Below, piece by piece: positions 7,468 to 62,200 of a stretch of DNA of 64,000 nt (the stretch's first letter is position 1; every line of letters begins with the position of its first letter). The stretch lies in contig CAJINV010000005.1 of assembly GCA_905178155.1 (NCBI GenBank), positions 5,615,469 to 5,679,468 on the forward strand, in the 5' to 3' direction. The notes under the pieces are model-generated. The model did not search any database, had not been told where the DNA came from, and saw only the letters and a list, made by a program, of their open reading frames with translations. This DNA comes from Amoebophrya sp. A120. Taxonomy: Eukaryota > Protista > Dinoflagellata. Both the position numbers and the translations under genes were made by a program.

Positions 7468-7697
7468 TATCAGAGTGCAAAACTGCTCCCCCTTCCCCTC
7501 TTTTGTATGGCATGAGCAGCAAACCAAGCGCCAGCACTCCTGGGGCTTGTGCGTGACAAGTCCACCGGCCGAAGGTAATGCGGTTTGGCTTTCCGAATAT
7601 ATTTGTCATGCATCATAGTGATACAAGGCAACAACTGGAGGATTTGGGTTTTTGCATGAGAAATGAGAACGCGGGGGAGTAGTTGTGCACTCTCATA
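7468..7697. mobile_element. Introner family H with 8-bp flanking direct repeat
   Basis: tatcagagtgcaaaactgctccccc / gggggagtagttgtgcactctcata; GAAGATCA on both sides. Confidence 0.8.
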
Positions 7698-23812: not shown

Positions 23813-24245
23813 CCCCCAAGACCGACTTGCCACGCACTTCATCGGTAATGGCGCCACCGCTCGGGATTCCTCCACGGAGGCAATGGAGAAATTCAACCAC
23901 GGCCAGCTCTACGACTGCGCCATCGACTGCTGTGGCGTGGCAAGTGCGATTAGCTGCGCGATCCACAGCACAAAACCGGGAAAAAGGGTGGTTTTGGTCG
24001 GGATGGGCGGGAACATGTCGAACATACCCTTGATCGACGCAAGTATCCGGGAGGTGGATCTGGTGGGCGTTTTCCGGTACCGCTACACCTACGCGACGTG
24101 CATTCAAATGCTCGCGGAGAAAAAAATCGACGTGTCAAAGCTGATCACGCACAAGTTTCCGTTCAGTCAGGAGGGCGTGGAAAACGCGATGGAGCATTGT
24201 AGGACGGGGAAGGACGGGTGTGTGAAGGCGATGTTGGAGTTGTGA
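23813..24245 (+). CDS. Duplicated, intact, intron-free C-terminal exon of the sorbitol dehydrogenase (partial gene or alternative exon)
   Basis: [58 protein letters not shown]; mostly synonymous differences from copy 1. Confidence 0.7.
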
Positions 24246-40751: not shown

Positions 40752-43700
40752 ATGGCCGGTGGAGGAGGTAGCAGTAGCCCCTCAAGCGGCAAAGCCGGAG
40801 CGCAGCAGCCGCCAGTAGCCCACGGCAACGGGAAGACGAGCAGCCCCTCCGGAGGTGGATCGGGGAAAGGCAGCAAAGGAAACGGCAGCGAAGCGGTTTT
40901 TCCACCACCCCGCCCGAGCCACAGCGAGGAGAGCAAGGGTAGCAGCGAGGGCCGCGCTAGCAATAGTTTAAGCGAGTCGGTGCTGATGGAATTCAAAGGA
41001 AAATTTGGCAAGGACAAGGACGGAAAGGGAAAAGGAAAGGATTTTGACATGTTAAAGCAGTTGATCTTCATGAAAGGGAAGCAAAAAGGTAAGGATAAGG
41101 AAGGAAAAGGAAAAGGAATGTTGAACAAAGGAGAACAAGATCATGTAGAAGCCCAAGCCGAGCGTGAGCCTCCTGAGCCCCAGAATAAGGAACAACACGC
41201 CGCACCGGAAAGTCCTGCGTCCGGCGGAGGTACTAAAGGCGGGAAGCAGAAGGGAAAATTTGGGAATAAAGGCAAAGATGGAAACGAAGACTGGTCTGAC
41301 AGTGAGGAGAGCCAAAGCGGCAAAGGCAAAGGCTTTGTGAAAGGAGGCAGAAATAAAGATCCTTTCGCCGGTAAGGGAGAAGTTCATGTGCCCGCCCACG
41401 GGATGAAAGGGCCACCAGACCATCCCGAACTAGAAGCACAGGGCAATAAAGGCGCGTCGTCTTCTTCTGCATCCTCTTCCAGCGGCGGCCTACCTGCTCC
41501 GCTGTCCAGCGAGGACGGAGATGTTGAAGAGGAGAAAAGCGAGCGTTTGCTTCCCCGCGAGAGCAGTGGTGACGAAAAGCAACCTGCGCCGAAAGCCAAA
41601 AAGAAGAAAAAAGAGAAAAAGAAAAAGCGAGGTAACGGACGTGATCGTGAACCCGGGGGCGAAAAGAGGAAGGATATTCATGACGAGGAACCATCTTCAA
41701 AGCGCAGAAAACACGACCATCAACAACATGGCGAAAAAGAGAATTATTACAACAACAATAAAGGGAGCGGTAAATTTGTACACCACGATCAATACGGAGA
41801 CCACTACAACAGCATCAGTAATAAAGGGACCACCAACGGAAATAAAGGTTACAACCCGGCAGGAACTTCTTCTACAAATAAGGGCAAAGGAAAAAATTCC
41901 TCTCTTGCGGCCATTCCCTGGACCTACACCTGGCTGAAACAAAGTTCCGGGCAGAAGCGGTACCAGGCCTATTGCCGGTTTTGGTACGGGGAGATCAATC
42001 AGGACTTGCTGCACTGGAAGTCGAAAGCAATCACCTGGTATTTGGAGAATTTAATCACCGGGGAAAACACGAGTCTGACCGCAAAGCAGAAACTCCTTTT
42101 CAATTCGATCCAGTACGACGCGAAACAGGGGTCGGATTTCCAAAGGCTCGAGCAGATGGGGGATTCGGAGTGGTACAGCACCTGCATGCACAGAATGCAC
42201 CGGTTCATGCCAGCGACTTCCGAGGGGGATTTCACCAATTTCTCCCAGTCCAGCGGTATGGTGCGGAAGCAGGGGGTGAAGCAAATGGAGTCGAATGTCA
42301 TCATGATATGCAACACAAATAATTTCCCGTACATTTACAAAATGCATCACAAGTTGAAACTTCGCTAAGAGTAAGAACGCGGGGTTGCGTCAAACTACTT
42401 GTCATGCTGACCACGATTGAAGGCAAGTTTTGTCATGCAGAAACAGCATTTGCTTTTGTACGCGTACGGAAAATTATTTACAATGGATACATGGCACTGT
42501 GCTTCTACAAGATGTGTCTCGGGGAACTGTTTGCGAAGAATTTGATCAAGTGCAGCATATCCTGCGCAAAAGTATCGCACCTGTAGTATTAATTGCGTTT
42601 CTGCATTACAAATCTCTTTCTCAAGGTAAATCAGCACTACAAATTCAATTTGTAATGCCGGCTAATTTGTAATGCGATGTAAACTAGTACGATGCTTTTG
42701 CACAGCATATAGCAACATGGACACGAAGTCGAACGCCCAACTGCAAACCGCATTGTCGAAGTGTGAGAATTTTTGGCTTCATTGGGACAAAACCCACCTA
42801 AGATTCGGGGAAGGCTGGTGGAAGGCGAGGCAAAATGTCGTTTCTCGACGAGATTTCGAGGAATTTATGGACGACGAGACGAATTTTATCGACGAGAAGC
42901 CAGACGATAACGAGCGGAGGAAAGTGGGGAACAACGGCTCATACGCACCCTACAACTTCACCGTGCAGCACGATCCGGATTTCGAGCGGCACATTTTTGG
43001 CAATTTCAAGGTGATCGAAAAGCAGGGCAAGAAACGCAGACGAGACGACGGCAGCACGGAAAACGCGGAGAGAGAAAGTCTCCCCTACCCGCTATGGATT
43101 GCAAAAATGTGTGGGTCTGGAAGATTATGAGACTTGTCATGCACCTTTTGCATGAGCCATGATGTCTGTGATGCATGCCGTAGCATCACAGATCTTTTCA
43201 GGGGTTCTTCATGCCTATTCCGCATGAAACATGCCCTCTCCGCGTAGCAAAGATCACACTTCCTTTGCTGCTCATGCAATACAAATTTTTTTGGAATCCA
43301 AACGCAGCATCACAAGTTCCATCCTCCCAGACCCAGACACTTTTGCATTCCATACCCACCAAGGGTCAACGACGAACTGGAGTTCCGTGAGACCACTAAC
43401 CCAAAGTCCTGGCACGTCTTATGAACTACAAAAGTATCGACGTACTCGTATAAATGCATTACAAATTTTCTCAGCATGAGAAATAAAATTTGTAATGCTG
43501 ATTTGCTTTGACAAAAAAATTTGTAATGCAAGACCTGCATTTATACGAGTGCGATACTTTTGCACAGCATACGTCTTCTACCTGGGCCGCGATTTAGATG
43601 ACAACCCCTACTGGCTCAGCAACCTCGAGGCGAGTCTCCAAATGCGGAGCCAGCTGGTGCGCACGGACGTGAAGATTCCGGCCCGGATATCCTGAGCAAT

Positions 43701-46700
43701 TAACACGTCCCTACCCCAGAGTCAAGTAGATGGGTAGTACTCCGCTAGATGACAAATCAGCCAGCTTTGATGGTTGCGCATGACAGGTTTGCTGGCCTCG
43801 TAGAAGCGTGATCCTGTTTACTAGCGTGCTCAGAAGCATCACAGATCCAGCGCATCGTGCTGATCGTAGCATCACAAATTTCGCAACGCGACTAGAGAAC
43901 GTTTTGCATGGGGCTCCGCATGAGAAACTTTTTTGGCATGCAGATTTGCATGACACTTCTGGGGTGGAGGGTGCGTTTTTTACATAGGATACCGGACTCC
44001 AGCGAAGGTCGTTGCCGTCCGGAAGGTATCAACTGCAAATATGTCTGAGTCTGGAAGTCTGTCATGCACATTTTGCATCACCGGTGATGTCTGTGATGCA
44101 TGCCATGTCTGTGATGCATGCCCAAGCATGATCACAGCTATTTTCTGACGGCTTTCATCTGATGCCCATACTGTATGAGAAACGCCCCCGCCTCCGTGTA
44201 GCAAGAAATACATCTCTATTGCCAATACAGATTTGTTTACGAATCAGAACACAGCATTACAAGTTAAGTACATCCTTCCAGACCCAGACTACATATTTGC
44301 ACTTGATAGAAAGACCAAGTAGCGGATTCCGATCTCGCACCCGGCGGGCCGGTGGAAATCGACATTGCGTTCAGTGTGAAAAACCTCGCCGGTATCTACA
44401 GTAAGCTTATTCGTCGTCCCGTGCAGAATGTACAGATGCTGTTTCTGCATGACAAAACTTGCCGGCAATGTTAGTCAGCATGACAAGGTGGGGATGTTGA
44501 CTCTAAGTTAGCGAAATTTTTTGTCATGCATTTTGTACACGTACTATCACGGGGATAAATTTGTATTGCATATCTGAAGTGGAAATTACCGGCGCGGAAT
44601 TGCAGCAAAGGAGAAGCAGCGAAGAGTTCGAGGCTTGGAGAAAGAGAAACAGGAATCTTCCCGAGCCGGAGCCGTTACGAGTCCCGGGCTCTTTCGACGC
44701 GCAAAACGCGAGCTCCGCGAAAAACCGGCATTTGACCTACACGCAGCCGGAGTTTTTATGCATTGCAAATATCCCTGGATGTCTGGAAGGTTGCAACTTG
44801 TGATGCTGTCTCTTCATTCTAGAAAAATCTGTATTGCATGAACAGCAAGAGGGGCCCAGTTTGTGCTGCTTGGAGATGGTATTTCTCATGCGGAAGAGGC
44901 ATCAGGGAAGCTTCGAAAAATCTGTGATGCTAGGTTATGCATATACCTGCTATGCATTACAGGCGTCATGGGTCATGCAAAATCTGCACGACAAGTCCTG
45001 CATTTCCAGGCCCAGCCATATTTGCATTTCATAATTTTTGCACGTGAGCAACACCGTCCGGTACGGCCAGGCTGGCGGAAAAAGCGAAATCAAGAAAACA
45101 GTCACCTTTGAATTCTCTTCGGAGCGAGAATTTCGGGAAATTTTCGAGCCGCCGCGGACGCGCGTGCGCCAACACTTGGACAAACGCGACTTGAAGATCA
45201 TCGCGGATTTCGGCGAGGCGATTTTCGGCGAGTTGCAGGCGTTGAAGCGGAAACAGGATGAGTTGTCGAAGGCGAATTTCCAAACTTTGGAAGCCGACAA
45301 GACGAAACGGGCGGAATACGACAAACTAACCGCGGCGCATTTGAAAGAGCACAACTTCAGCAAGTTTGTCGATTACGCCCGACAGGACGAGGTTGCGGAG
45401 GCACTGTACAAAAATTACGTTCGCTTCCTCTCGGGGCAGGACGAAGAAAGGCAGGAGAAGGCTGCGGAGAAGCAAAAGTTCGTTTCGGCCACACCACCGT
45501 CCGGCGGTGTTGAGCAGTCTAGTCCCAAAACGAGCTCCGCTGAGGAGAGCAAAGTGGAAGGAGGAATCATACAGCACAAGGCTTGCTTGATGCGGGGTGT
45601 TCTAGTGGAGGCCGGAAAGGAGGATAACGACTTGGGTATGACCAAGTCCAACTGGATCAGACTGTGGAAAAACCACTGGGAGCTGAAGACCGCGACAACC
45701 AGCAAGACGATCTCCACCACCGCGTTGAGGAAATCAATCGGGGGAGGGTTAGTACCCGGAATACAGGATGGTACGAAGTCGGGCGGTGTAGTAATCCGGG
45801 GGAACAAGCCGGAACTACACCAGGAAGACATTAGTGGCCCGGCCGAGATCGCCCGACTGATTGGTTGGGCGGACTACTGTCTGAACTTTTCCGACTTCAC
45901 GAAAGAGATCCGCCGGCAGGTGCAGAAGGACGCGGCCTACCTGCAGAACACTATGGAAGCGTCAGGTTTGAAATCGACAAAGTTGAAATGATTTGCCATG
46001 CATAAAATGGATACCAGTCGGATACCCAATTTTCAAGCGGCGCATGACAAATTTTCCGAGCGCCGGAATTCAATTTGTCATGCTGCTCGGGCACAGAAGA
46101 CTGCTTTTGTCATGCTCCTTTAGCAGCTCTACTTCAAACCCCAAACAGGCTGACACGCGGCCTCCCTTGCCATCCCGGCAAGACAGGCACTTCATGCCTT
46201 GCATTTTATGCATGGCAAATCATTTCAACTTTGACGATTCCAAACCTGACGCTTCCATAAACACGCACAAGAAGATCAAGGAAAGGGCGCAGCATATCCA
46301 CAGTACATTTTCCGTACACGTACAAATGCGGTCTCCGCATGACAAAACTTGGCTTCGATCCTAGTTTAGCATGACAAGTTTAACGCTCCACATTGGTGAA
46401 ATTTGTGATGCATCTTGTACATGTACGGAAAATTTGTATTGCATATAGCAGTTGGCGACGACATTGACCGAGCTGATCGACGCGATGGCGGACTGGTGCA
46501 TTCTGAAGACCTTGGAACTGCAGAAAACGAAACTCTTTGACGATTTCATGCAGGCCCGGCACTTAAAATCGACCGACGATTTCCGGTTATTATGAACTGC
46601 AAAAGCATCGCGCAATTAGAAATTGCATGACAAATTTTTGATATTGACTTATCATTACAAATTCAATTTGTAATGCGGATTTGCCTGAAGTAGAAGTAGA

Positions 46701-49700
46701 AAATTTCTAAATGCATAAAACGCAATTAGTACGAGTGCGATACTTTTGCATTGCATAGCTATTCGACAAAGCCGATTGGAAGAAAGAGCAGAAGCAGTCG
46801 GAAAAGCTGATGGGGGTCGAGGCGAACTTCCAGACCGAGGATTTCTTGGTGAACCTGTTGACGAAAAAAACGCTGGAGTTGAAGCGATTTGAGGAACGGA
46901 AAATGATGAGCAGCGGTGGAGGGGATCCGAAAGATAAACTAGCGATCGGCTCTGCCGACGGGGGTACTTCTAAAAATCTCGATGTTGACATCAAGAAAAA
47001 AAAGAGCCTTGCTTTGGCCATTGCCACGCAGCAAAAAGTAGTACCAACAGCGGCGGAAAGGTTTAAGCAGGTATCAAATGTAAAAATGTCTGGGTCTGGA
47101 AGAACTCATGTTTGTCATGCTTGTCTGGCATAACTCTTAAATCTGTCATGCACGTTACCCAAGAGCTCCGCTTTTCTGTGATGCAGAAGCGCAGTTTGTC
47201 ATGCGGAATAGGCAACACCTAGGAGCTCAGAAACTTGTCATGCTGAGCCAGCATCTGTAGCCTCATTATGAGACGCCACCCAGCATCACAAGTTTCCAGA
47301 CCCAGACACTTTTACATTTGATAGCAGGCGAAGAAGTTGCACTTGTTGAAAGGTTATGGAGCGCAAATATGTCTGGGTCCTCTGGAACTGGATGGGTCCA
47401 GATATTTGCCATACTGTTCTTGCATGATCTAGGAGATCTGGCATGTAAGCCATAGCATCACACGTCTTGGGAAGCTGTCCCCATGCCTAATCCGCATGAC
47501 AAATGCCCAGTTTTGATGGTGCTGAGTTTTGGGCCGCATTTGCTGTTCATGCATCACAGATCTTTGCGTTGTGTGAAATTTGCATCACAAGTTGCAACCT
47601 TCCAGACCCAGATATTTTTGCACTTGATAAAGGTCAGATTCTCTTTCGACAGGACCAGGACGCGTTTGAAGTTTTCGAGCAAAAGTGGAAGGAAGCGAAG
47701 GAGAAAGTCGAGGATAAGGATTTTTATTTTGGAATCTCGAAACCAACCGAGGGCCAAGTGCAGCAGCATCGGATTACGAATTTTGTGAACGAGAAGCTGC
47801 GGGATCTGTCGATCAAAATCGACACGAAGATGCGTGATAAAGCGTTCGGAATAAAGATGAACACTGGAGCAGGAGGTGCGGCAACTTCTACAAACTTGAA
47901 CAAGAACCTCGCGATTGCGCAGTTCCTCCAAACGGGTGTAAAGACGGTGAATAAGCAAGATATGGACAGTTTTAAGGGCTTGTCCGAGGAAGAGCGAGCC
48001 GTGGTTTGGCTGGACCGGGAAATCAACTACGCGGTCCGGATATGAAATGCAAATATGTCTGGGTCTGGAAACTTGGAACTTGTGATGCTAACTGTGGATT
48101 CTAAAAAAAATCTGTATTGCATGACCAGCAAGAGGAGTCCAGTTTGTGCTACGCGGGGAGGCCATTTGATTGTGATGCGGAATTATAGGCATCAAGACGT
48201 AGTCGGAATAAAATCTGTGATGCTACTACCTAGGGAATACATCACAGACGTCACGGGTCATGTAAAATCTGCATGACAACAAGTTGCAACCTTCCAGACC
48301 CAGACATACTTGCATTTGATGCCAGAAACTGAAGGAGGGAACAAGCAAGACATCTTCTTCACTTAGCTCCAAAACCGCCGCGGAAAACAAGAAGAAATTG
48401 TTGCAGAACAGCCAGAACAAGATTGCGTTTGCAAACTCGAAAGACACAGACGGCGGGAGTGCGAATGTAAGGAAACTGCACTTAACTTCGTTCTTCAAAA
48501 CTTTCGGAGACGAATTTGAAGAGGCCCGGGACTGCGCGCTCTTGGCGTCTGTGTTGCCGAATTATAATTCCAAGCCTACTTCGACCTCCGCGAAAAGCCC
48601 AGGACCACAGTCCTCGGGAGTGCTTGATGTTCTCGGGAAGAGCAAATCTTCCCTGTACATCCAAGAGATGAAGAACGTCACAAGGAAAAAGATTGACGCG
48701 CGGAATTTCAAATACGACGTGGATTTCCGACAAGAGGTAGCGGGGAGGTTAAAACGGATGCTGGAGGATGTAGGAAGAAACGAGAAACAAGGAGAACCGG
48801 CACAACTAGCCCTACAGGACACCTCCAATGACCGACAACAAGAAGTGCTCTCCTACGACGAAGTTTTCGATCCCTCAACTCCAAGCGTTAAAAACCCGAA
48901 CGAAAGTGGTTCTCTTGCAAACAAAAGGAAAAGTGGAGCGGTCGATCGTTTTTTCGGCACGACCGGCGACATGAAAAAGCCACTTGCTGGAAGTAGCACG
49001 AAGAATGATGCCTCGACAAATATAAATAAACCTTTCTTCATTCTGGAAACGGAGCCTTGCGGAGCTTGTGACTTCCTCACGACGAGTTGTACTTCTAGCA
49101 GTGACGTAGTTTCTACTACAATTCGGCAGAAAGAGCTGGACCTCGTGGACGAGTTTTTGCCCTTTACAGGCGCCTGGTGCAAGAAAATCGATGTCGTCTC
49201 GTCGGCTTCATCTTCTGGCGGCGGGGGACCGACGTCAACACCGCAGCCGAACCAACAAGCCGACCCCGACTTAGAGCAGGAGATTCAGGAAATCGAGAAA
49301 AAAATCCAGGAAATCCTATGCATTGCAAAAGTATCGTATTCGTAGAAATGCATTACAAATTTTCTCGACATGAGAAATAAAATTTGTAATGCGGATTCAC
49401 CTTAAGGAAAAGAATTGTAGTGCATGGCTGCAATTTTTACTACGAGTGCGATACTTTTGCACAGGATAAATCCAGAAGCACTACAACGAGGTAAAAAACG
49501 GCGCGAAAAATCTCGGACGGAGCGATGCGAGTATGCAATACTAATTTCGTCCCGCTGCACATGTACAAGATGCATGACAAACTGCGCGAACTTGAAGCGA
49601 CGTCCAACTTGTCATGCTGACAATGATTGAAAGCAAGTTTTGTCATGCAGAAACAGCACTTGGATTTGTGCGAACGTCGTCGTGTGTGGGAAATTTACAG

Positions 49701-52700
49701 TGGATAGCGAGTGTGAAGAAAATCTTAGCCGGGTACAGCAACGAGATTGTGGAAATCCAGCTGGTATGCATTGCAAAGGTATCGCACTCGTAGTAATTGC
49801 AGTCATGCATTACAAATCTTTTTCTTAAGGTAAATCAGCACTACAAATTTCTTTTCTCATGCTGAGGAAATTTGTAATGCATTTAGACGAATGCGATACT
49901 TCTGCACTGCATATCTGTCGCAGATAAAGCTGAGGAAACAGAAGTTGAAACGGATATTACCCGAATTGAGGTTCGAAGCCGGTTGCGCCGAACGGGGGAA
50001 AGCGGTGTATTGCGAAGCGGAGGTGAATATCAAGTGCAAAAATGTCTCGGTCTGGAAGATTGCCTGGTTTGTCGTGCATATTTTGCACAACCCATGATGC
50101 CTGTAATGAATGACCTAGCATCAGAGATTTTTAAAAGGGCCTTCTGGTTCTGATGCGTATTCCGCGTGAGAAATGCGGCCCTGTCCGCGTAGCACGAATG
50201 GAACTCCTCTTGCTGGTCATGCAATACAGATTTTTTACCTTGTTCCAAAGACAGCATCACAAGTTACAACCTTCCAGACCCAGACATATTTGCATTCCAT
50301 AGTGAACGACTTCGTGCAGTTTTCCTCGAGCCAAAATTTCTCAGGTACGACTACAGGAGGCTCTGGAACGCCCCGAGCTGCAGCAGCTGCGAATAGTACA
50401 GGAAATAGAAATCCGGGCGACATAGCGAACACAAGAATGTACTACCAGCAACACCACAGGGAAGCGGTGATTCAAGTTTGCGAAAAGATCCCGACTCTAT
50501 CACAGGAAAAAGTGTTATACGTTAACGGTTTTCACAGATTCTTGCAGTCATGCATCACAAATGTAGTTCAATATGCATGCTATGCATGACAAATTCTGAC
50601 ACGTCTTGTGATGCATTTCTGCGTCACAAATTCCGTTAACGTTAACACTTTTTCTTGTGATAGACTCTTCCCCCCATGCAGACCTGGCACAACCAGAAGG
50701 GGAGGCTGACCGCAAATCGGCCGGAGACGGTGGAGATCTCGAATCAGGTAGACAGAATCAAACACCAGATGAAAACTATCGTGCCGACCATTCACGCGGA
50801 CCTGTTCACGTTGTCGCAGTTAGTGACGTTGCCGTTCATGGAAGCAGAGGACAGGAGGAAGTTGGAGTTCGACGTTTTGGTTTTGCCCAACGGGGCGATT
50901 TGCTTCAAGTGCGTTTCTATCCACGATCCGGCGGACGATAGTGAAATAGATGGCGGAGAGGTCGAGGACGACGTTGATCAGGAAAGAACGGACTCGCTCT
51001 CGTTCCCGTCCAAAGCCGACCTGGCGAATTGCGAAGTGGAGGGTCCGGACGCGAGTCTGATCACAGCTTTTACGTTATCACAAGCAAAAGTGTTAAGGTT
51101 GAGGGTTTTCACAGATTGGAGCCATGCATCACAAATTTAGCTTAGTATGCATGTTAAGCATGACAAACTTGGACGCGTTTTGGTTATGCGTTGCTGCGTC
51201 ACAGATTCCGTTAATGTTACCACTTTTTCCCGTGATATACGCAGCAGGAGCTGAGGTTGAGCGGGAACGAATCCGCTGCCGCAGCGATTCTTGCGGGTTC
51301 AACATCTCCGCCGGCGCTGAAGAGACAACGCAAGGACAGCGACGACATTGCTCTTGCTGGGCAGCAAGATGAAAGAACCTCGAGCAGCGCCAGCGGCGGT
51401 GGAAGTTGTGCGATCGAAGAGGACCATCTGCATTCCCTAGCTGGTGCAAATAAAACATCAACTTCCAGCACGACGCTCCATAACACAGTCTCCCCTTCCT
51501 GGGAGCTTTGCCGGTCCCGCCTCATCCAGGCCGGTCGGGGTTCGCAGCTGTGCGCTTTCGGGCAACGGAAGACGAAAGAGGAGGCAAGTATACACTATTA
51601 CGAGTTCGCGTTGAATACCCATTACATCCTGCTCGCAAAGCCCATCGAAGCGTGTTTCAAAGTCCAGAATTTACAGCACAAGCTCGACTTTGGCAAGCAG
51701 CAACCGATCAGCTTGAAGTGTATGCGGTACAAGCCGCCAAAGGTCGGGAATGCAACTAGCGCGCACCCGGAGCCGAAGTTGTATCGGAAGCAATTGCTGC
51801 AAATTTGGGGGGAAGCAATGTGGATATCACAGGAAAAAGTGTTAACGTTAACGGAATTTGTGATGCAGTGACGCATCAGAAAAGGTGCGCAAATTTGTAT
51901 TGCATAGCATGCATAGAAGGCAAAACTTGTAACGCATGACTGCCATTTGTGAAAACCGTTAACGTTAACACTTTTTTGTTTGATAGTGGATGGAGGAAAA
52001 TCACAGCCACTTGGTTTATTTTATCGACGATGGGAAAGTCATACCGAGGACAACTTCTGGCGGTAGTAGCAATAAACCTGCATCACCCGACGACCATCTC
52101 CACCCGGATTTCTATCAAATGTAAAAATGTCTGGGTCTGGAAGGTTGGAACTTGTGATGCTAACTTTGGACTCTAAAAAGATTTGTATTGCATGACCAGC
52201 AATAGGAGCCCAGTTTGTGCTACGCAGGGAGGGCATTTGTCATGCGGGATAGGCATCAGGAAGACCTCTACAAATATGTGATGCCAGACCATGCATTACA
52301 GACATCATGGCTCATGGAAAATATGCATGACAAAATCTCGCAATCTTCCAGACCCAGACATTTTTACGTTTGATAATTTCAAGCAGTTGACAAAAGAACG
52401 GATGATAACCATCGGGAAAAATTACAATTGGAGCCGGTGCCGAGGGTTCGAATTTGTGGACAAACTATTCTCCTGGATTCATTCAGGCATGATCACTGGG
52501 CGTTGCCAGTGGCGGACGCGGTTTAAACTCTTCTGCAGTTCTACGAGGACAGATCAGCTATTCCCTGAAAATTTTTAACCACCCCCAGCCGGTCATTTTC
52601 TGCATGGCAGGCACTGAATTTACTACATGTTTTGCATGACAAATTGGAAGATTATGGGGATGGTTAATGTTTCAGGGAATATCAGCCGATTGAGACGGAT

Positions 52701-55700
52701 CTGTGCGACATGCTGGTCCTGCGCGGTTTAAAATACGATGAGCAGAAGCCAATGACTCGAGCACCAGTGAGCTTGAACTATTTCGGCGGGTTCTGTGATT
52801 TGAAGAAGAACTACAAAAACGTGGGTAGTAGTACAACAGCCTCCTCTTCTATCGTACAAAAAAAGTGTTTCACTGTAAGGATCTTACAGGTTTTGCATCA
52901 CAAGTTTGTTCTACATGACCGAGAAAATTTGCCATGCGAGGTTCCTAAAGGGAAAACACAGCGAAAAATCCACAGTCTTGCATGTGTAGCAAGACAAACG
53001 CTTGCGAGATACACTTTCTGCATTACAAGTTTACAGTGAAACAGTTTTTTCTGGGGATATCTTCATCTTCTGGTCAACGACTTTCCACCACCCCGACTTC
53101 CGCTGCGGCTGCTATGGAGTTCTCAAACGTTACACTCTCAACTGTTACATGCATTTGTCATGCAAAGTTGCCAACAGCCTCCACTTGATGAAGGTGCTTT
53201 AGCATGACAAATTTTCGAAGGGCTAAGCAGCATGGTAATCTGTGGCAAAAAATCTGTGATGCGAAATATGCTGCAACGTTGCCACTTTTACTGTTGCTGT
53301 TCTTGCATTATGTAACGTTTGAGAACGCTATAGGTGCTATGTGGCAGAGGACCCCGAGTCTCGGCAGTCAGCACCCGGGGGGATTGCTGCCGAACGAGAC
53401 AATGTATGAAATGCAAATAGGTCTGGGTCTGGAAGAATGCGACATTTGTCATGCTAGTCTGGAATGACTCTGCACTCTGTATTGCGTGGCCACCAAGCGG
53501 CCCGCTTGCCTTTCATGCGAATAAAGCGCAGTTTCTCATGCGAAATACGCATCACAGAAGCACGAAAAGAGTTGTCATGCTTGGCGGCGCAGTACAGAGC
53601 ACTCTATTGTTCACGGAGTTGCATCACAAGTTTCCAGACCGCCAGACATTTTTGCGATTGAGACAATGCAGCTGCAGTTTGACACGTTAGTCAAGGAAGT
53701 ACTGGACGAGGTAGAAACCATATCGCAAGAAAAAACTGTTTCGCTGTAAATTTGTAATGCAGAAACTGTATCTGAGAAGTGTTTGTCTTGCTATACATGC
53801 AAGACACTAGATTTTTAGCTGTGTTTTCCCCTAGGAATCTCGCATGGAAAAGTTTCTCTGTGATGTAGAACAAACTTGTTTTGCAAAATAACTTACAGTG
53901 AAACACTTTTTTCGTACGATAAACCACGTCGTCAAAGGCCCCCGCCATTGTAACCGGGAAGAAGATGTCCTCGCCATCGAAACGCCCGCCGAGCGACAAC
54001 AAGAAGGGCACGACTAGCAAAGAAGATGAACCAGAAACGGCGATGAAAGTAGACGAGACCTTGGATGAAAAGCAGAAAGTCCTCGCTTTGTTCAAACAAA
54101 AACAGCAGAAAATCAAATCTCTCCCGAAGATCTACTCCACCATCAGCCCTTTCTCCCCGTATTTCCAGCTTCTCCAAGTGCCCTACGGGTGGCATTTGCG
54201 GTACTCCCGCTCCAGCAATCGGTCCTACTACGAGCACGCAACCTTCAAGCAAGAGAAAATCCAGAATTGGCAAAAGCGTGAGAAGCCGCAACTATTGGCA
54301 AAACTGGAAGAAGAGAAGAAGAAGCTCACTGAGGATGTCGCCTCGAAGAGGCAGCAAGCAAGAGTCGAGCACTACAAGAATGCGTTAAAAGCGCAGCATC
54401 CGGACAAGATGCGATTTCACTCTTGGACGGAATTGTACAAAACACCCATTGGGTGGCAAGCGAGAATTCCTTCTGACGTGTGGAAAAACGAAATGAGTTT
54501 CAAGAAGATGCCAGATTCGGTGGAGTTTGGTAGGTTGCAGAAACTGGAAAACCAGAAGAAACCGGACCAGAGGAAACTACTCGATCCGGAGGACACGATA
54601 TGCATCGCAAAAGTTTATCGTATTAGTGGATTAATTGCATTACAAATTAGCTTAGCATGACTGATGTAATTTGTCATGCTGTTTTAGCTGAGAAATGCTG
54701 AACTGCAATTAGTACACGAGTGCGATACTTTTGCAGTGGATACACGAAGTCGCGGTACGACGTGTACTTTGAGAACTCGTTTTTGGACAAGAGGTTCACC
54801 ACCGGCGGCAGTACAGATATCACAAGAAAAAGTGTTAACGTTAACGGAATTTGTGATGCAGTGATGCATCAGAAAAGGTGCGCAAATTTGTATTGCATAG
54901 CATGCATGGAAGGCAAAACTTGTAATGCATGACTGCCAACTGTGGAAAGCCTAATGTTAACATTTTTTTTGTTTGATAACAGGCAGTGGCGCTTCCTCCT
55001 CCGCGGCGAAAACGACGAATAGCACGGTTATTCCGACTGACATGCAGGAGTTGCTGAGAGCGACGGACACCTTTGACAACCGGAACTTTTTCAGCTTGAA
55101 AAACTCGACGATCAAACAGAACACTTCGCTATCCTGTGTGAGAAAAACGTCCCAACCCCGAAGTTGTCATGCAGATTTGCGATTACAGGAACATTTGTCG
55201 TGCGCATCTCCATGAAATGCATTTCAGATCGTGTTCTAAAATTTGTAATGCTGTAAACAGGATGACTGAATTGCTTTGTCATGCAGCTTCCCTTGCTGAC
55301 CACACTACGCTGCAGATGGAAAGAACTTGTCATGCGCAACTCCCAAAACTTGGAGACTTGTCTAGCAGACTTGACTATGGGGTCCTCGTGGGGACGTTTT
55401 TACTCAGGACATTCCCTCTCCTCCGTGGACCTTCTCGCCGTGAAACTGCAAAAAGACGAGATTTCCGAAGAGGCCGTGGCGAATTATCTGAAACAGGAGG
55501 CAAATCGGTTTTACACGGCGAACGTGACGGACTGGAATTTGCCGTTTAAATCCGCAGACCAGTCGACCAGGGATTGGTTGGTCAGTCAAAACGGGATTTT
55601 TCTAGTGAGAAAGTTCGGCCACGAGAGGAGTATCAAGGATTTTACCAGTCCGGAGTTGGCGAAAGTGGATATGGACGACTGGAGACACGAAAAACGGGAA

Positions 55701-58451
55701 CAACCAGAGACTCTCGCTATCAAAGTGAAAAAAAAACCCTCCCCCTATCGAAACGAAGTTTCTGATGCTGGATTTGCGAACACAAATCAGATTTGTCTTG
55801 CTGGAGAGGACTACAGACGCATAGTAATCCGGAGCAGAGCGGCTTTGGCATAGGCACTTAGCATGAAGAACGTCCGCACTGCAGGCCCAACAGCATGACA
55901 AAACGCCTGCAAAATGCGGCGGAGACTGTGGAGCTGCCTTCTTGCAAGACAGACGCGATCTGTGGCCACAAATCAGCAACGCAAATTGTCGAAGACGTGA
56001 CCACGCGTCAATATGTGTATGGGGAGGGGGGATTTTTCCGTGTGATACTCGTGGACGACGCGGCTGTTGAGGACGTGTTTGCTGCGCTGGATGGGAATAA
56101 CGCCGGGTATTTTCATGGGGCAGGACGAACAATGTATGGCGAGGAAGTAGACCAAGGATGGTCACTGGAGCGGGAGCTTTTTGAACAGCAGCAGGAGATA
56201 AATAACGAAAATGGAGGCGGACCTCCTCCGCAGTTGTTCTACAACGAATCTGTACTGCAATTTCAGCAGCAAGTGCAACAGCAAATTCAGGAGTACCAGT
56301 TGCAATCTCCGAATTTTGATGTCAAAGAGGACGAGGACCAGCAGCAGCATCGTGATTTCTCACAACCGCAGGCGCACCAGCAACAAGCGCATCAACTGGA
56401 GGGCGCGCATCAGCATCTTCAGGAGCAATACGGGTGGTGGAGCTCGCCGGAGGAACAGCAGCGTGTCGGGTGGAATAATATTACCGCTACATCGCCCTGT
56501 TCTTGTGAAGGAAACCAAAACACTTTGTTCAATGACAGTCTGCGTCTGTCCCGGTTGCAGAGGAGCTCGGAGGACTTGTTATCCACCGGGAAAAAACACC
56601 CATCCCCATCCAATTTGTCATGCACAACATGTGTATCAGTTCAACAGGGCCCGCGGTTCAACAATGTACCTACCAGTTCAATACCGCCCCGGGGCCTAAA
56701 TATCCTAGAACAAGCAGGCCATTTGATATGCTCGGCGCCAAAAACATATGCAGGTGGAGGAAGGAGTAGGGGGGGCGTTCCTGACCCAAAGGTACGCTCC
56801 TGATCTCAGTGGTACTTAGTCGACCCGGGGGGCCAGGTATTACCTGACCCCCGGTTCGGGTCTGTGCCTGCAATGCTGCAGCGAAGTCGTTTTAGATGGT
56901 GCTGCAGCACAGCTGCGCGCACCTTGATGGGCGCCAAAGGCCCCAAGTCTGTCGCTACAGAAAACGGTAGCCATGACTGCGATCGGCCCTAGTGTTCGAC
57001 CGCTTTCTGTTTGAAACCAGCGCCGCGCACACAGCTTCGGTCTTCGTGCGCCCATTGATCGGAAGCAGCGTCCCTAAATCCTACGGCCGGCAGCCGTGCC
57101 ACCGTAAACAATAGTCGCGCAGCGCTTCGCGCCTCACAAACCAAAATCGCGCGCGCGCGCGCCAAAATACAGGACCTTTTGGGGCTTGTTGCGTGCACAT
57201 TCTTTTTGCGACATATGGCGCCCGCAAGATATGCTCTGTAGCTCATCGGGATTCTTTTCTCCCGTTGCCCGCTCTTTTTTTCGGGGTTTGGCACGTGCAC
57301 TACGTATGGTTCTCTTCTTTTTCGTATGCCCGGAACCTTCACGAACTAAGTAGTTCGTGAACTGGGGTACACTCTCGAACCGATTCACATGCATAAAATC
57401 CGCTAGTTGTCATGCAAAAAATGGATGGGGATGGGTGTAGAAGTCTTTTCCTAGATACTTATCTGAGGAAGAACATTTAGAAGACCGCCTGAACGACTTA
57501 CTCCCGTACAGCTTCTACGGAGGGGATAGGATGAAGGACAACGGTACAACTACTAGGGGCGAACAGCAGGAGACGAACCAGCGAGCTTCAAAAATATTGC
57601 CAGACGAGCCGCGACATCATCAACATCATGACGCGGTGGAGGAACCTGTTCCGTTTAATAGCGAAGGATCCTTTTTGCTGCCTCTGGAAGTAGGAGAGAC
57701 GCAGAGAATCAACGCGGAGACTACACCAGGAGGCACCGCTCGTCGTGCCAGCGAGGATCATCCTCTCCTAGAAGAGCACCAACAGGACGAGGACGAGGAC
57801 GAGTATGACGAAGCGGCGGAGGCCCGGGAGCTCGCTAAGGAATTGGAAAACGGTCTCGGCGCTCTGGTGTTGGAATCGCCAGAATTGCTGGTCTCGTTGG
57901 CAGAGAGCTTGGAGAAGGAGGAGCAGGAAAAAATGAAAAAGGAGAAGGAGGAGGCTGAAGCTCAAGCTGCAAAAGTAGTAGAGGACAAAGAAAATATTAT
58001 CCCCACAACTAGTACAACTGGTGGCCGTGCACCAGCTGCACAAACGAGAAGTTGTCCAGGGGCGCGGCGTCCTAGTTCTCGCGATAAAAAAGCAGCAGAA
58101 GACGACTACGATTTTGAAGCAGAATTGCAGTCTCCCACGGATGTGACCGCGAAGAACCAGCAGGATACGACGGTAAATAACACTTCTGCAGGACGAGCGG
58201 CGTCAAGCGCCAAGGATCAACAGCAGAGTAAATATCTCAAACTGCCACTGGAGGAGCCAGACGAAGCGGGTGATGATGATGTCGAAGATGATCACGATTT
58301 GGATGACCACTGGGATCTTCTTCGCGGGGAGGACGATGACGATCATTGGGATGGATTGAACTCGCCCGGGGCCGCTGGGGATAATTCAGAGGCTCCTGAG
58401 CACAAGAACATCAATAAGCGAAAACTACTACACAAGCGAAAGCTTGTATGA
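40752..58451 (+). CDS. Giant hypothetical protein (~3300 aa), 33 exons separated only by introners; KGKG-rich N-terminus and a WW-like motif
   Basis: Hand-traced continuous frame across 32 introners; VPYGWHLRYSRSSNRSYYEH (~54178-54237) resembles a WW domain. Confidence 0.8.
42307..42489. mobile_element. Introner family C (inverted orientation)
   Basis: TIR; CATGA/CATGG. Confidence 0.88.
42558..42709. mobile_element. Introner family A
   Basis: TIR; CAGCA/TAGCA. Confidence 0.88.
43093..43354. mobile_element. Introner family B
   Basis: TIR; CCCGC/CCCAC. Confidence 0.9.
43420..43571. mobile_element. Introner family A
   Basis: TIR; CGTCT/CGTCT. Confidence 0.9.
43688..43991. mobile_element. Introner family G
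   Basis: TIR; CCGGA/CCGGA. Confidence 0.88.
44027..44308. mobile_element. Introner family B
   Basis: TIR; GAAGG/GAAAG. Confidence 0.88.
44393..44572. mobile_element. Introner family C (diverged)
   Basis: TIR; GCCGG/TCTGA. Confidence 0.8.
44757..45033. mobile_element. Introner family B
   Basis: TIR; GTTTT/ATTTT. Confidence 0.88.
45952..46259. mobile_element. Introner family F
   Basis: tatggaagcgtcaggttt / aaacctgacgcttccata; AACAC/AACAC. Confidence 0.93.
46295..46445. mobile_element. Introner family C
   Basis: TIR; CAGCA/TAGCA. Confidence 0.92.
46591..46757. mobile_element. Introner family A
   Basis: TIR; GTTAT/GCTAT. Confidence 0.88.
47072..47323. mobile_element. Introner family B
   Basis: TIR; GCAGG/GCAGG. 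Confidence 0.92.
47355..47629. mobile_element. Introner family B
   Basis: TIR; AAGGT/AAGGT. Confidence 0.9.
48041..48321. mobile_element. Introner family B
   Basis: TIR, right end ATG; CCGGA/CCAGA. Confidence 0.88.
49317..49468. mobile_element. Introner family A
   Basis: TIR; AATCC/AATCC. Confidence 0.92.
49532..49706. mobile_element. Introner family C (inverted orientation)
   Basis: TIR; GCGAG/GCGAG. Confidence 0.88.
49765..49913. mobile_element. Introner family A
   Basis: TIR; GCTGG/TCTGT. Confidence 0.88.
50028..50301. mobile_element. Introner family B
   Basis: TIR; GTGAA/GTGAA. Confidence 0.9.
50498..50662. mobile_element. Introner family D
   Basis: tatcacaggaaaaagtgtta TIR; GACTC/GACTC. 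Confidence 0.92.
51076..51237. mobile_element. Introner family D
   Basis: TIR; TACGT/TACGC. Confidence 0.9.
51825..51985. mobile_element. Introner family D
   Basis: TIR; GTGGA/GTGGA. Confidence 0.92.
52113..52375. mobile_element. Introner family B
   Basis: TIR; ATTTC/ATTTC. Confidence 0.92.
52559..52681. mobile_element. Introner family E-like
   Basis: tattccctgaaa / tttcagggaata; TCAGC/TCAGC. Confidence 0.88.
52850..53059. mobile_element. Introner family I
   Basis: TIR; TCTTC/TCTTC. Confidence 0.88.
53113..53332. mobile_element. Introner family J
   Basis: tatggagttctcaaacgttaca / tgtaacgtttgagaacgctata; GCTGC/GGTGC. Confidence 0.88.
53405..53663. mobile_element. Introner family B
   Basis: TIR, right end AGA; CAATG/CAATG. 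Confidence 0.85.
53721..53921. mobile_element. Introner family I
   Basis: TIR; AACCA/AACCA. Confidence 0.9.
54599..54742. mobile_element. Introner family A
   Basis: TIR; CACGA/CACGA. Confidence 0.88.
54818..54978. mobile_element. Introner family D
   Basis: TIR; ACAGA/ACAGG. Confidence 0.9.
55130..55411. mobile_element. Introner family G
   Basis: TIR, right end ACA; TTCGC/TTCCC. Confidence 0.85.
55718..56047. mobile_element. Introner (singleton family in this window)
   Basis: tatcaaagtgaaaaaaaaaccctcccc / ggggagggggatttttccgtgtgata; CTCGC/CTCGT. Confidence 0.85.
56580..57457. mobile_element. Introner family E carrying a nested insertion
   Basis: cacccatccccatcc / ggatggggatgggtg TIR core; CTTGT/CTTAT. 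Confidence 0.88.
56632..57387. mobile_element. 756-bp non-autonomous TG..CA element nested in an introner
   Basis: Termini TGTATCAGTTC / GAACCGATTCA (9 of 11 inverted match), CATG duplicated on both sides; empty family E copies read aaaaCATGcataa. Confidence 0.75.
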
Positions 58452-59293: not shown

Positions 59294-62200
59294 ATGCGCG
59301 GTTGTGACGATCCAGCATCCGTCGCTGCTGGTCTCAACGTCGTTTCTTTCACCTACAATTGCGGTGGCGTGGAGCCCCCGCAGGAGGAAAATTTAAAGCA
59401 GAAGCTACAGGAAGAGATTCGGGAAAATCTGCTCCAGCAGAGGATTGATTGCAGTCGCAACAGTGATGGAAATGATCTTGTTGATTTTGCTGGTGCGCCT
59501 GCGGCCCATTCTGCTTATATTACCGTCGAACAACAAGCCGCAAATCCATCCACAACTGGAGGCACAACGAGGAGCGCTGGTGACCACAGTGTGTGCTTTA
59601 CCCCGGACATCGTTGTGATCAATCTGCAAGAATGTTGCCCGCTAGCCCTGGCCGCTTTAGGCAACAACGCTTCGGACTCCTACGGAAACAAATGGCGAGA
59701 CGTTTTCATTGAGGCTCTGGGCTACGGGCCATTAGACCGATTGACCTGCAGGTTTTACACCCAGTTGCACGGCGGGAAGGGAGCTTCAGGAACCGACGTT
59801 GCACCTGCGCAAGAGCTCGATATAGAGGAAAAATGCGAAAATTCCGCCGGTGATCAACATGTTGTATCGAGTTGTTCTAGGGCTCATGTCGCGTCCTCGT
59901 CCTCGTCTGCGAGCGCCGTTGCGGCTGCTAGTGACGTAGCTTGTTCCAAAAAGTGCTCCTCAAAATCGTCAGTAAGCACAGCGGCCTCGTCTTCTTCTAG
60001 TTTTGTTTCTACGGCAAGCAGCACTGGTGATTGGAAACAACTCGCAGCTTCCGCTTCGAGCTCTTCCAGGCTAGAAAGGGAAAGACAAATATGCTCATCG
60101 CCGGATAGCAATTGCAGTTCAAATTCGAGCGCCTCGACATCATCGAGTAGCGCTTCATCCTCTTCGACATCTTCCCCGTGTTGGACTACGACGGAGCAAA
60201 TCAGCCCCGCACCTAGAGCCAGTCCACCCGACGAGAGAAGGGATGAAATAAGCCCGAAGGATCCACCAGTGTCGCCGTCGCCCGACGCATTAGTGAACGA
60301 GAAAGGCCGCCGCGATCTGTTCTTCCCACCGGCCTTATCAACATCGGGAGGGGAAGATGTAAATAAACACGCACCACAAATCGCATCAAACGGAGCGGAA
60401 GACGAGACAGTTACGACAAACAGTTGTGGTTCATCTAGCAGCTGCTTCAGCGCTTCAGCGTTATCTTCAACCGCAGTGACGCCAGGGAATTCCAGTTCGA
60501 ATTCCTCTTGTTCTAGCTTTCTCCCGCCCGGCGGCGCAGGTATGGTAGTGTCAGGATCGAAATCGACAAAGTTGAAACATCAATTTGCGATGCATAAAAT
60601 GCAATCCACAGAATGCCTGTCTTGCAGAGTAGGCAAGGTAGGCAGATTGTAAGCCTGATGAGGGGTAGAACTAGAAACTGAGCTGCTAAAGTAGCATGAC
60701 AAAAGGGGTCTTCCTTACCCAAACAGCATGACAAACTGGATTTCGGTTCTACCCAAGTTTGTCATGCACCACTTAGAAACTGGGTTACAACTGGCATCCA
60801 TTTTATGCATGACAAACCATTAACGACTTCAATCCTGGCACTTCCATAGCAGGCAGTCGCTTTTTACAAGTTCCTCAAGCCGGGGGTGCGAAGGTGCGCA
60901 GTGCGGGAGGTCGTGCAGTTGTTGGGCAGCTGACCGCCGAGTCTTCCTCTGCGAGGACAGGCAGCATGACAACAGGAGGTGGAGGCTTTGGGTCCCGCCG
61001 GGCAACCGCGATCACTACGAATAAGATGCAGAAAAATTATAACCGCCGGCCGACACAGCTACCGGAAGAGCTGCAGGGCGGGTCGTTTGGAAGTACTTCT
61101 AGCTGCGCTCAGACTCAGACGCCTGCTGCAGAGGGCAAACAGGACGAAATAATAATAAAAGAAGTTCTTGCAAAAGTTGGTAAAAAATCCCGACGACGGC
61201 GCGGCACAGAGAGCAGTAGCACTGGGGGCTCCTTCATCGACCTTGCTGACTACGAAGACGCAGCCTGTCGCTCTCCCTCGTCACACAGTTGCCAGCAGAA
61301 CTTCTCATGCGAAACGCCGAAAGTAGTAAAGGTGAACAAGCAAGGTGGTAAAGCAGGCCCCAGCTGCTCAGGCGGTAGAATCGACGACGACCACTTTTCA
61401 ACATCCGAAACAACATCCGACTATCCAGGAAAATGAAACACCCATCCACATCCGATTTGTCATGCGAAACACGTATCAAAAAAAGAAAATTTCTGAAGAT
61501 AATGCTGTGTTTGTCATGCAAAAAATCGATGCTGGGGTTGGATTTTTTTTCCGTCAATACCAACAGTAGCCTCGCTGCGGATGTGGAGCACAGTCCAAGG
61601 TGCACCGTTTTGTATCACAGGTAAAAGTGTTAACGTTAAACGCTTTTCACCGATAATTGCAGTCATGCATCACAAATGTAGCCCAATGCGCATGTTATGC
61701 ATGACAAATTTTGGCACGTTTAGTGATGCATTGCTGCATCGCAAATTCCGTTAACGTCAAGAACACTTTTTCCTGTGATATTTTGAGCGCGACGGCAAGA
61801 AATTCCATAAGCAAGGCCATCAGACGGGAGGAGAGGAAGAATAAATCATCACTCCTGCTGCATCAAAAGACCACTAGCACACGGACAAAATTCAGTGGTT
61901 CGTCATCATCCACGACCGCCGCCCACACCGGGGAATGTTATCACTCCTTGGCGTTCGCCCCTATGTCGCAGCAGGTGACGACGCCTCCGAAACTAGGCTC
62001 CATCTCGTCCAAAACCGGACTTTTGCAGCCGCCCGCGCTGCTGAAAGTAGGAGCAGCTCATCCGGGAGGAGGTGCAGGCAATGCAAGTGCTTCGCCTTCG
62101 CATTCTCCTCTCAAGCACATGATCCACCAGTCACGACGCTGCCTGAGCCCCGGTCGGGTAGGACAGGAAAGTTCTCTGAACACATTGCCAAGCACGTGTA

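Follow-up and report, generated by a model that had tools for sequence, protein, structure and literature searches.

Evidence for a common splice register in the introner elements of Amoebophrya sp. A120, with a possible role for a modified spliceosome

Amoebophrya sp. A120 is a parasite of algae. About 65% of its introns are non-canonical according to Table S4 of Farhat et al. (2021, PMC7789003). The introner elements described in that paper have inverted repeats made of TAT, 7 nt and an A-run, occur in repeated families, have non-GT-AG ends and are bordered by repeats of 3-5 nt; the Fig. 3 legend describes the splice sites as variable and the border as unknown, the text gives no clear terminal signature, and its authors report no cognate transposase in A120. 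Comparable introners in Micromonas, Aureococcus, Symbiodinium and Florenciella (Gozashti et al. 2022, PMC9860276) are non-autonomous transposons with terminal inverted repeats and target-site duplications, in which one duplication's worth of sequence is spliced away and the borders fall within the duplication; those introners carry or co-opt GY/AG, whereas the A120 elements need neither.

We have analysed a window of 64,000 nt from contig CAJINV010000005.1 (forward-strand positions 5,615,469 to 5,679,468); window coordinates are used below, and all features given with a range lie on the plus strand. The elements in it are the A120 introners already published by Farhat et al. and are not new in themselves. 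What we add is a fixed register, 1 nt before and 4 nt after the hairpin, and an asymmetry between T at intron position +2 and A at position -7; a literature search, mostly outside subscription papers, found no paper stating the register.

Introner elements of the window

The spliced product of the RPSA (uS2) gene (9631..12732) is identical to CAD7951329.1 over 263/263 residues, and the genome is therefore that of A120. This gene contains introners at 9695, 9922 and 12013, together with canonical introns at 10336, 10696 and 12359 which all begin with GTAT; all four canonical introns in the window begin with GTA. Three canonical introns contain introner pieces. An origin of the RPSA GTAT introns as converted introners was considered and is unproven, the element matches beginning at +14, +138 and +1042 and not at the donor.

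The window set comprises 63 introners and is partly hand-curated: candidates at 5110, 6512, 7901, 30300, 41675 and 57998 were dropped from the first list, 62242 was replaced by 62203, and 21546, 56580 and 44393 were added by hand. An automatic finder recovered 51 of the 63 and no extras. An outside set, independent of the window, has 308 elements, of which the 230 with a strand call were used; the other 78, which have eight deviant termini among them, were excluded from the counts. The A120 hallmark of TAT, about seven variable bases and a run of A is present: inverted repeats begin with TAT in 62/62, and A occupies positions 11, 12 and 13 in 51, 54 and 57 of 62. The elements group into 10 families and eight singletons, and only 2/63 have GT-AG ends.

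Where Farhat et al. give border repeats of 3-5 nt, we find 5 bp, with the junction inside. A perfect 5-bp repeat flanks 37/63 introners and 1/1,124 background TAT..ATA pairs, and a match of at least 4/5 flanks 58/63 and 20/1,124 respectively, a comparison which is partly circular because the repeat match fed the detection score. Exact flanking repeats have length 5 in 37/62 cases, and each other length from 2 to 9 occurs 0-2 times. Elements with mismatched repeats are numerous, as the initial annotation had noticed, and their count is 26/63 rather than about 24.

Introner families are found inserted in both orientations. A duplicated gene piece (24135..24222) has a single copy of the 5-mer where its paralogue carries the introners at 22063 and 22261; these empty sites match at 42/45 and 45/45 positions, and precise intron loss in the paralogue would also fit.

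Position of the junction within the duplication

We denote by k the number of bases that the exon keeps from the left 5-bp repeat. A giant gene (40752..58451) runs for 3,334 codons from the ATG at 40752 to a TGA ending at 58451 once 32 introners are removed. When the element plus 5 nt is cut from each of the 32, the reading frame has no internal stop at k = 1-4, a single stop at k = 0 (whole right repeat kept; residue 1132, position 46446) and a single stop at k = 5 (whole left repeat kept; residue 2030, position 51075). This upholds the original claim that the junction lies inside the duplication, together with its two supporting cases. The first is the introner with repeats CAGCA/TAGCA (46290..46450; hairpin 46295-46445; predicted intron 46294-46449; fold z -4.8), where a stop arises if position 1 is taken from the right copy; the second has TACGT/TACGC (51071..51242; hairpin 51076-51237; predicted intron 51075-51241; fold z -2.7), where a stop arises if position 5 is taken from the left copy. 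The evidence at these two is stop-codon logic; RNA-like contigs bridge neither of them, and the joints described below come from other elements. Near the second, the listed contigs end at 51036 on one side and begin at 51250 on the other, and a DNA-like contig (50636-51852) crosses the introner unbroken.

Read-through of these stops, or TAG as a sense codon, was rejected because no TAA or TAG occurs among the 7,957 sense codons of five long reading frames; Gln and Glu codons number 479 in the giant gene by itself, and nowhere does TAG serve as a sense codon. Stop-codon reassignment is reported for another Amoebophrya (PMC11453091) and was rejected for this window on the same five-frame count. 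The two halves of the giant reading frame are joined by a degenerate introner with repeats GCCGG/TCTGA (44388..44577; element 44393-44572), and spliced contigs cover the 3' part of the gene, extending to 143-216 nt past the stop. A Pfam scan of four of its exons gave no convincing family (one weak match lay under its cut-off), and a protein search with 574-2000 residues did not return the A120 protein.

Among 62 mismatched elements of the outside set, stops arise only at k = 0/1 (locus L046) and at k = 5 (L067). Both loci are on the minus strand of their contigs, and thus the rule follows the transcript. RPSA supplies a separate constraint, since intron 9695-9849 (TCTGG/GCTGG) yields Gln at k = 0 and His at k of at least 1. 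The junction residue is His in all 94 homologues with a residue there (120 aligned, 26 gapped), and the gene model equals CAD7951329.1 only when it is His, in agreement with the initial annotation that the left T is needed. Neither the GC/AT polarity of repeat mismatches nor the codon-likeness of left versus right repeat bases discriminated between registers.

More direct evidence comes from assembled contigs of one sample, whose RNA nature is presumed, not recorded. These RNA-like contigs skip 12/12 joined elements by exactly the element plus 5 nt, and four further elements fit by the size of the spliced contig (629 = 629). Eight of the 12 joints are informative. Position 5 was taken from the right copy, so that k is at most 4, at ACAGA/ACAGG (54813..54983; element 54818-54978; joint 54812>54979, 4/4 runs) and CTCGC/CTCGT (55713..56052; element 55718-56047; joint 55712>56048, 4/4 runs). 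Position 4 came from the left copy at TTCGC/TTCCC, which ends in ACA (55125..55416; element 55130-55411; joint 55128>55416, 4/4 runs; k at least 4), and at a long introner of 878 nt with CTTGT/CTTAT (56575..57462; element 56580-57457; joint 56578>57462, 4/4 runs; k 4-5). Position 3 came from the left at CCGGA/CCAGA, which ends in ATG (48036..48326; element 48041-48321; joint 48038>48325; k 3-5), and at CCGAC/CCAAC (61417..61564; element 61422-61559; joint 61419>61563, seen in a single run at depth 4.2; k at least 3), an introner in a second gene, of phosphatase type (PF22669). Position 2 came from the left at GCTGC/GGTGC (53108..53337; element 53113-53332; joint 53109>53335, 3/4 runs; k at least 2), as did position 1 at GTGAC/CTGAC (63440..63659; element 63445-63654; joint 63440>63656, seen in a single run at depth 3.5). 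The joints at 61422 and 63445 are among three which rest on one contig (depth 3.5-4.2). The joints do not include the introners at 9695 and 21546, and none is listed for those at 60541, 62203 and 63063, where contig cover was absent. Raw RNA runs X8 and X9 (128 and 3 reads) gave no match to the exons.

Tabulated in the way the initial annotation had proposed, the bases retained at these eight elements are left at positions 1-4 and right at position 5. All eight fit k = 4, and only this value fits them all because k is at least 4 at 55130 and 56580 and at most 4 at 54818 and 55718; no single RNA-tested element fixes k alone, and the value is the overlap of the eight. The cuts are therefore staggered and inside the duplication, as had been proposed from stop logic. 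The simplest model offered with that proposal, in which k = 1 and the cuts fall 4 nt ahead of TAT and 1 nt beyond ATA, is excluded by the joints at 48041, 53113, 55130, 56580 and 61422. If one rule holds for all elements, the exon very probably keeps positions 1-4 of the left repeat and position 5 of the right. Under the same assumption we have high confidence that the intron has the form N-TAT...ATA-NNNN, extending 1 nt before and 4 nt after the hairpin. All nine of the commonest A120 non-canonical pairs in Table S4 of Farhat et al. begin with N-T, with all four bases represented at the first position (PMC7789003), which appears to match this form.

The most atypical introner, ACGAG/CCCCC (21541..21719; element 21546-21714), lies in a Zn-dehydrogenase gene. 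Its repeats match at 1/5 positions, its left inverted repeat is one base short, a nearby duplication begins within its 3' end, and the exon product predicted by the 1/4 rule is ACGAC. A protein search for the dehydrogenase returned two homologues of about 50% and not the A120 protein.

Composition of the intron ends and candidate mechanisms

The initial annotation had proposed that no terminal dinucleotide code operates, and the counts agree. G occupies +1 in 81/293 introners (16/63 window, 65/230 outside) and AG forms the acceptor in 24/293 (8/63 and 16/230), so neither the donor G nor the AG of U2-type introns is characteristic here; base composition is flat at all repeat positions in both sets. 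T+2 is present in 293/293 and A+3 in 291/293, as in U2-type introns, although detection accepted TAT with at most one mismatch and this constancy is partly built in. A-7 is present in 291/293 (2/230 lack it), and the constraint is strand-specific: deviations among the 230 number 0/2/11 at +2/+3/+4 and 5/3/2 at the mirror positions -5/-6/-7 (P = 0.0025 by Fisher's exact test; P = 0.007 for 168 perfect repeats; P = 0.0005 with the window's 63). Adding three strandless elements with their neighbours' strand gives P = 0.003; one of the 78 without a strand call, L001:1359, would carry C at +2 and is positioned beyond the stop of its neighbour reading frame. Six of the seven changes at -5 are A>G, and tolerance of G-U wobble could also explain the invariance of T+2. 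The asymmetry is per position only, as that of the whole triplet in the window (5'-TAT 0 versus 3'-ATA 4 deviations) was not replicated outside (13 versus 10). Nor was an excess of G at exon position -1 (27/63, P = 0.012 uncorrected; 66/230 outside). The excess of A at -2 in Table S4 (8/9 pairs) is absent here (15/63; 65/230), and the first exon base showed no purine preference (31/63; 140/230, or 61%, versus 58% in coding sequence). Thus the proposal that splice sites are measured from the hairpin stands as regards the fixed 1/4 offsets, and falls short in that T+2 and A-7 are more constrained than their mirror partners.

The T+2/A-7 asymmetry, and an N-TA that falls in the register of canonical G-TA, lead us to favour a modified spliceosome over the endonuclease-ligase splicing suggested in the initial annotation. 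We give a probability of about 0.55 to the reading that hairpin introns obeying the 1/4 rule are excised by a modified U2-type spliceosome. At the donor it would recognize N-U-A, aligned as G-U-A is in canonical introns; the hairpin would hold the ends together, replacing recognition by U1/U2AF; and A-7 would be the putative branch nucleotide, from which distance would set the 3' site. The yeast P complex has three such pairings, of U(+2) to U6 A51, of G(+1) to G(-1) and of A(-2) to the branch A (10.1101/212811); here the second and third would be lost and U(+2), which pairs with U6, retained. A120 is reported to have U2, U4, U5 and U6 and 83/89 spliceosomal proteins, U1 snRNA being undetected in that survey (PMC7789003). 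Missing G+1 and AG are hard for spliceosomal chemistry, and donor and putative branch site would both lie buried in the hairpin. The full version, in which a spliceosome dispenses with G(+1) and 3' AG and recognizes only N-UA as its donor and, seven bases from the intron end, a branch A, both presented by a hairpin, is tentative, at a little under even odds. The same caution attaches to its extension, that tens of thousands of A120 introns may be spliced that way, with a 5-bp duplication equal to the 1+4 offsets.

An alternative that we consider unlikely is a non-spliceosomal protein endonuclease which binds the hairpin base and cleaves 1 nt upstream and 4 nt downstream of the hairpin, a tRNA-type or RtcB ligase joining the exons. 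The flat composition of the repeat positions suits it, as do the undetected U1 snRNA and the pairing of element ends in register in 55/62 predicted folds, and Euglena hairpin introns, for which non-spliceosomal factors are suspected, use fixed spacers and need end pairing (PMC12501133). A pure structure ruler, however, predicts equal constraint, whereas T+4 has 11 pair-breaking changes and A-7 two; three RNA-confirmed introners with a broken 3' ATA (ATG, AGA and ACA) are still cut at the element plus 5 nt. Pairing beyond the inverted repeat is at chance level or lower (13, 21, 2, 22 and 12 of 63), with no bulge-helix-bulge, and an Rfam scan of the window found no family. In strain A25, all nine pairs of Table S4 begin with TT and the repeats begin with TTA (PMC7789003); the first base of the hairpin thus appears to be where its introns begin, yet they seem to retain T+2 and A+3, which also argues against a ruler.

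It is improbable that the elements lack a shared register, their junctions floating within the repeat or varying by family and k = 4 being the overlap of a few cases. Only eight joints are informative, and if k (0-5) were random for each element the eight would still share some value of k with P = 0.12 (6/256 under a coin-flip null); the sites are termed variable in the Fig. 3 legend of Farhat et al., and the N-T starts and A-N ends of Table S4 are what one expects from mixing k = 4 with k = 1 (PMC7789003). Against this, k = 1 is excluded at 5/8 joints from several families, joints covered by 3-4 runs agree with no alternative joint listed, and the 26 + 62 mismatched elements are free of stops at k = 2-4. 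Reverse-transcriptase template switching at direct repeats, or excision at the DNA level, is very improbable: hairpins with direct repeats are a classic template-switch substrate and the library type of runs X1-X4 is unrecorded, but the 3,334-codon frame and conserved RPSA require removal in vivo, the longest microhomology at 55130 and 56580 predicts the wrong product, and DNA-like X5 contigs (50636-51852 and 53897-54845) span whole elements with 0 differences.

Whichever machinery acts, a fixed register separates the predictions, a lariat at A-7 on the one hand and circles or cyclic-phosphate ends on the other, and it is a rule for re-annotating tens of thousands of slidable intron borders. 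As the 5' and 3' offsets sum to the duplication length, invasion of a gene would be harmless: insertion in either orientation would restore the mRNA, and this equality may be why these transposons could spread as introns.

Comparison with known splicing systems

Splicing of tRNA (bulge-helix-bulge) and by IRE1/RtcB also makes structure-defined, staggered cuts without GT-AG. The A120 introners differ in having no bulge-helix-bulge geometry. Introns of Fritillaria borealis are likewise transposon-derived, with inverted repeats and duplications, and an adapted U2 spliceosome is reported for them (Henriet 2019, as reviewed in PMC11282704); in that account Fritillaria retains preferred AG-AC and AG-AT ends, whereas in A120 intron positions +1, -1 and -2 are free. 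If the A120 introns are spliceosomal, they would represent natural exon ligation without G(+1) or AG, although these bases pair with each other and are regarded as essential to that step.

Closest in layout are the nonconventional introns of Euglena, with the code N3CDG...CHG N5-6|R (Nomura et al. 2025, PMC12501133). Both systems place their splice sites at constant distances from terminal triplets that pair, with the longer spacer at the 3' end, and share slidable direct repeats, free terminal dinucleotides and a likely transposon origin. A review describes the excised Euglena introns as circles and reports no lariats (PMC11282704). In A120, by contrast, the triplets are TAT/ATA and not CAG/CTG, the spacers are 1 and 4 and not 3 and 5-6, exon position +1 has no purine preference, the triplet falls in the canonical donor register and the lineage is unrelated. 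If not spliceosomal, the A120 introners would thus constitute a second, independent hairpin-ruler splicing system besides that of Euglena.

Splice joints in transcript-like contigs

The stretch is contained in seven of ten sequencing runs; joints were read from assembled contigs of one sample, not from reads. Four runs (X1-X4) were treated as RNA because their contigs skip elements, end 143-216 nt past the stop codon and have zero depth at 58872-59972; a fifth (X5), in which whole elements are spanned unbroken, was treated as DNA. We found that an element (a TAT...ATA hairpin flanked by 5-bp direct repeats, named here by its start coordinate) plus 5 nt is skipped exactly at all 12 joints in the transcript-like contigs, of which three come from one low-depth contig; elements 46295 and 51076 lie outside this set. 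Four further elements agree by assembled length (629 = 629).

At eight joints the two repeat copies mismatch. Repeat position 1 is kept from the left copy at 63445, position 2 at 53113, position 3 at 48041 and 61422, and position 4 at 55130 and 56580, while position 5 comes from the right copy at 54818 and 55718. If k is the number of repeat bases (0-5) that the exon keeps from the left copy, the remainder coming from the right, k = 4 is the sole value compatible with all eight. Thus, supposing one rule for all families, it can be said with high confidence that the intron begins 1 nt upstream of TAT and that its last base lies 4 nt downstream of ATA. The initial annotation had proposed tabulating mismatched repeats in cDNA; these eight contig joints bear out its placement of the junction inside the duplication but reverse its simplest model (4 nt before TAT and 1 nt after ATA, k = 1), which five of them exclude. 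Agreement of the eight on some k has P = 0.12 if k is random per element and P = 0.023 under a coin-flip null. Template switching is an unlikely source of the joints, as at 55130 and 56580 the product predicted from the longest microhomology is not the one seen.

Reading frames and an independent element set

Taking out element plus 5 nt at 32 elements of the giant gene leaves a single ORF of 3,334 codons (40752-58451). This ORF is open at k = 1-4 and stops at residue 1132 (46295 element) with k = 0 and at residue 2030 (51076 element) with k = 5. At k = 0 RPSA would carry Gln at a residue that is His in 94 of 94 homologues ungapped there (120 aligned). All the earlier observations from the sequence are correct. 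TAG as a sense codon was ruled out, TAA and TAG being absent among 7,957 codons. The spliced RPSA model is identical to CAD7951329.1 of Amoebophrya sp. A120 (263/263). Its canonical introns (10336-10513, 10696-11855 and 12359-12589) all start with GTAT and contain degraded introner fragments (BLAST E 1e-4 to 1e-32), and may be either converted introners or old introns that received insertions; the second also holds a short repeat array (11450-11720). The gene at 59294-64000, presumably an inositol 5-phosphatase by its motifs, carries a PF22669 endonuclease/exonuclease/phosphatase domain, and one more element seems to start within it at ~63992.

A pattern scan of another assembly yielded 147 loci without a long match to the window, containing 308 unique elements; they represent the same introner families, at 75-94% identity to the window copies. 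Transcript strand was assigned to 230 of the 308 by a codon model which, when checked on the window, called 61 of 63 elements, all correctly. Among the 230, 62 have mismatched repeats, and stops arise only at k = 0 or 1 (locus L046) and k = 5 (locus L067). Both cases are on the contig minus strand, which indicates that the stagger follows the transcript. Should this assembly come from another strain, it could serve to study presence/absence polymorphism.

The introners and their terminal bases

The 63 curated elements in the window (114-878 nt, median 201) form ten families and eight singletons and occur in both insertion orientations; they start with TAT, end with ATA in 59 cases and have 5-bp direct repeats on both sides. 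Folding with paired ends is predicted for 55 of 62, with z = -4.8 for the 46295 element and -2.7 for the 51076 element. Two empty sites in a duplicated gene piece (24135-24222) each hold a single 5-mer copy (matches 42/45 and 45/45), which fits a 5-bp target duplication. Element 21546 contains, in its 3' end, the start of a tandem segmental duplication (21690-25450). In the duplicate copy of the dehydrogenase 3' half (~23790-24250) the frame is still open, and the copy is without elements 22063 and 22261, which were therefore inserted after duplication or precisely lost. The 878-nt introner at 56580-57457, about four times the median and spliced in four of four runs, is apparently a small family member and carries a GC-rich insert. 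Short sub-terminal motifs shared by otherwise unrelated families (134 of 156 hits fall in the 14 kb made up of elements) are candidate binding sites for a transposase or splicing factor. At 4690-4925, 6512-6953, 2040-2175 and 7468-7697 there are elements that are degenerate or incomplete and whose gene context is uncertain, and in-frame read-through of one of them suggests decayed copies; positions 1-1260 carry GC-rich tandem-like repeats.

Splice sites had been proposed to be measured from the hairpin and not specified by dinucleotides. The repeat bases are indeed flat, but the terminal triplets are asymmetric on the transcript. Numbering intron positions from the 5' (+) and 3' (-) ends at k = 4, G at +1 occurs in 16/63 elements of the window and 65/230 of the independent set, terminal AG in 8/63 and 16/230, and the GT-AG pair in 2/63 and 3/230. 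There is no overall excess of G at +1 in the counted elements; three (21546, 44393 and 49765) of the five with the most decayed repeats (at least two mismatches) have it, a possible drift towards GT donors in numbers too small to weigh.

In the 230 elements, deviations at +2, +3 and +4 number 0, 2 and 11, and at the mirror positions -5, -6 and -7 they number 5, 3 and 2. The outer versus inner contrast (Fisher's exact test, P = 0.0025; restricting the set to perfect repeats gives 0.007, and including the window elements 0.0005) was picked after the counts were known, T+2/A+3 having been noted before the independent set was obtained. The remaining 11 inverted-repeat positions are symmetric (P > 0.05). 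Wobble could explain the +2/-5 asymmetry, but fails to explain why A-7 is kept while T+4 may break its pair. One strand-unassigned element, positioned beyond the stop of a neighbouring ORF, would carry C at +2. In Table S4 of PMC7789003, the nine commonest A120 non-canonical pairs all start N-T with the first base free, which supports the 1/4 register genome-wide. Eight of those nine have A at -2, an excess absent here (15/63 and 65/230); borders that are unstranded or have slid might account for it.

Mechanism and comparison with known systems

We favour a modified spliceosome, at a probability of roughly 0.55. The hairpin would define the intron ends, N-UA would be the donor, in the register of the G-T-A of canonical introns, and A-7 would be the branch nucleotide, from which distance would fix the 3' site. 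A short, fixed distance from branch to 3' site is found in Trichomonas and Giardia. G-T-A starts all four canonical introns in the window, with N-T-A of the introners in the same register. In yeast, the post-catalytic spliceosome has U(+2) paired to U6 A51, whereas G(+1) and G(-1) pair with each other and the branch A pairs with A(-2) (10.1101/212811). The introners retain the base that faces U6 and lack the mutually pairing ones. A120 has U2, U4, U5, U6 and nearly all spliceosomal proteins, U1 snRNA being reported as not found (PMC7789003). It is the N-T-A register, the retained U(+2) and this inventory together that favour a modified spliceosome. In the Amoebophrya strain A25, repeats start TTA and TT begins all nine commonest pairs (PMC7789003), implying T+2 and A+3 once more, with an apparently different hairpin offset. 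Introns of AT5 are nearly all GT-AG.

The main rival, an endonuclease-ligase that cuts introners as a ruler, is a weaker possibility. It would suit the wholly free +1, -1 and -2, and it has an analogy in the nonconventional introns of Euglena, whose workings are similar: paired CAG/CTG is flanked by fixed 3-nt and 5-6-nt spacers (PMC12501133), and the introns leave as circles (review PMC11282704). The window introners, however, do not follow the Euglena code. Under either mechanism the 1 and 4 nt offsets sum to the 5 bp of the duplication, from which it follows directly that every insertion would be removed without trace.

The introners also depart from the standard U2 intron, at both GT and AG. 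Neither the 1/4 register nor the T+2/A-7 asymmetry was found in the literature searched, which included PMC12130899, PMC11453091, PMC9860276 and PMC12621601; Figs 3 and S19-S23 of Farhat et al. 2021 (PMC7789003) may show part. In all features tested the window elements match the A120 introners of Farhat et al., and are members of that class. Thus the elements were already known and their splice code is newly fixed, which makes the mechanism of introner splicing testable.
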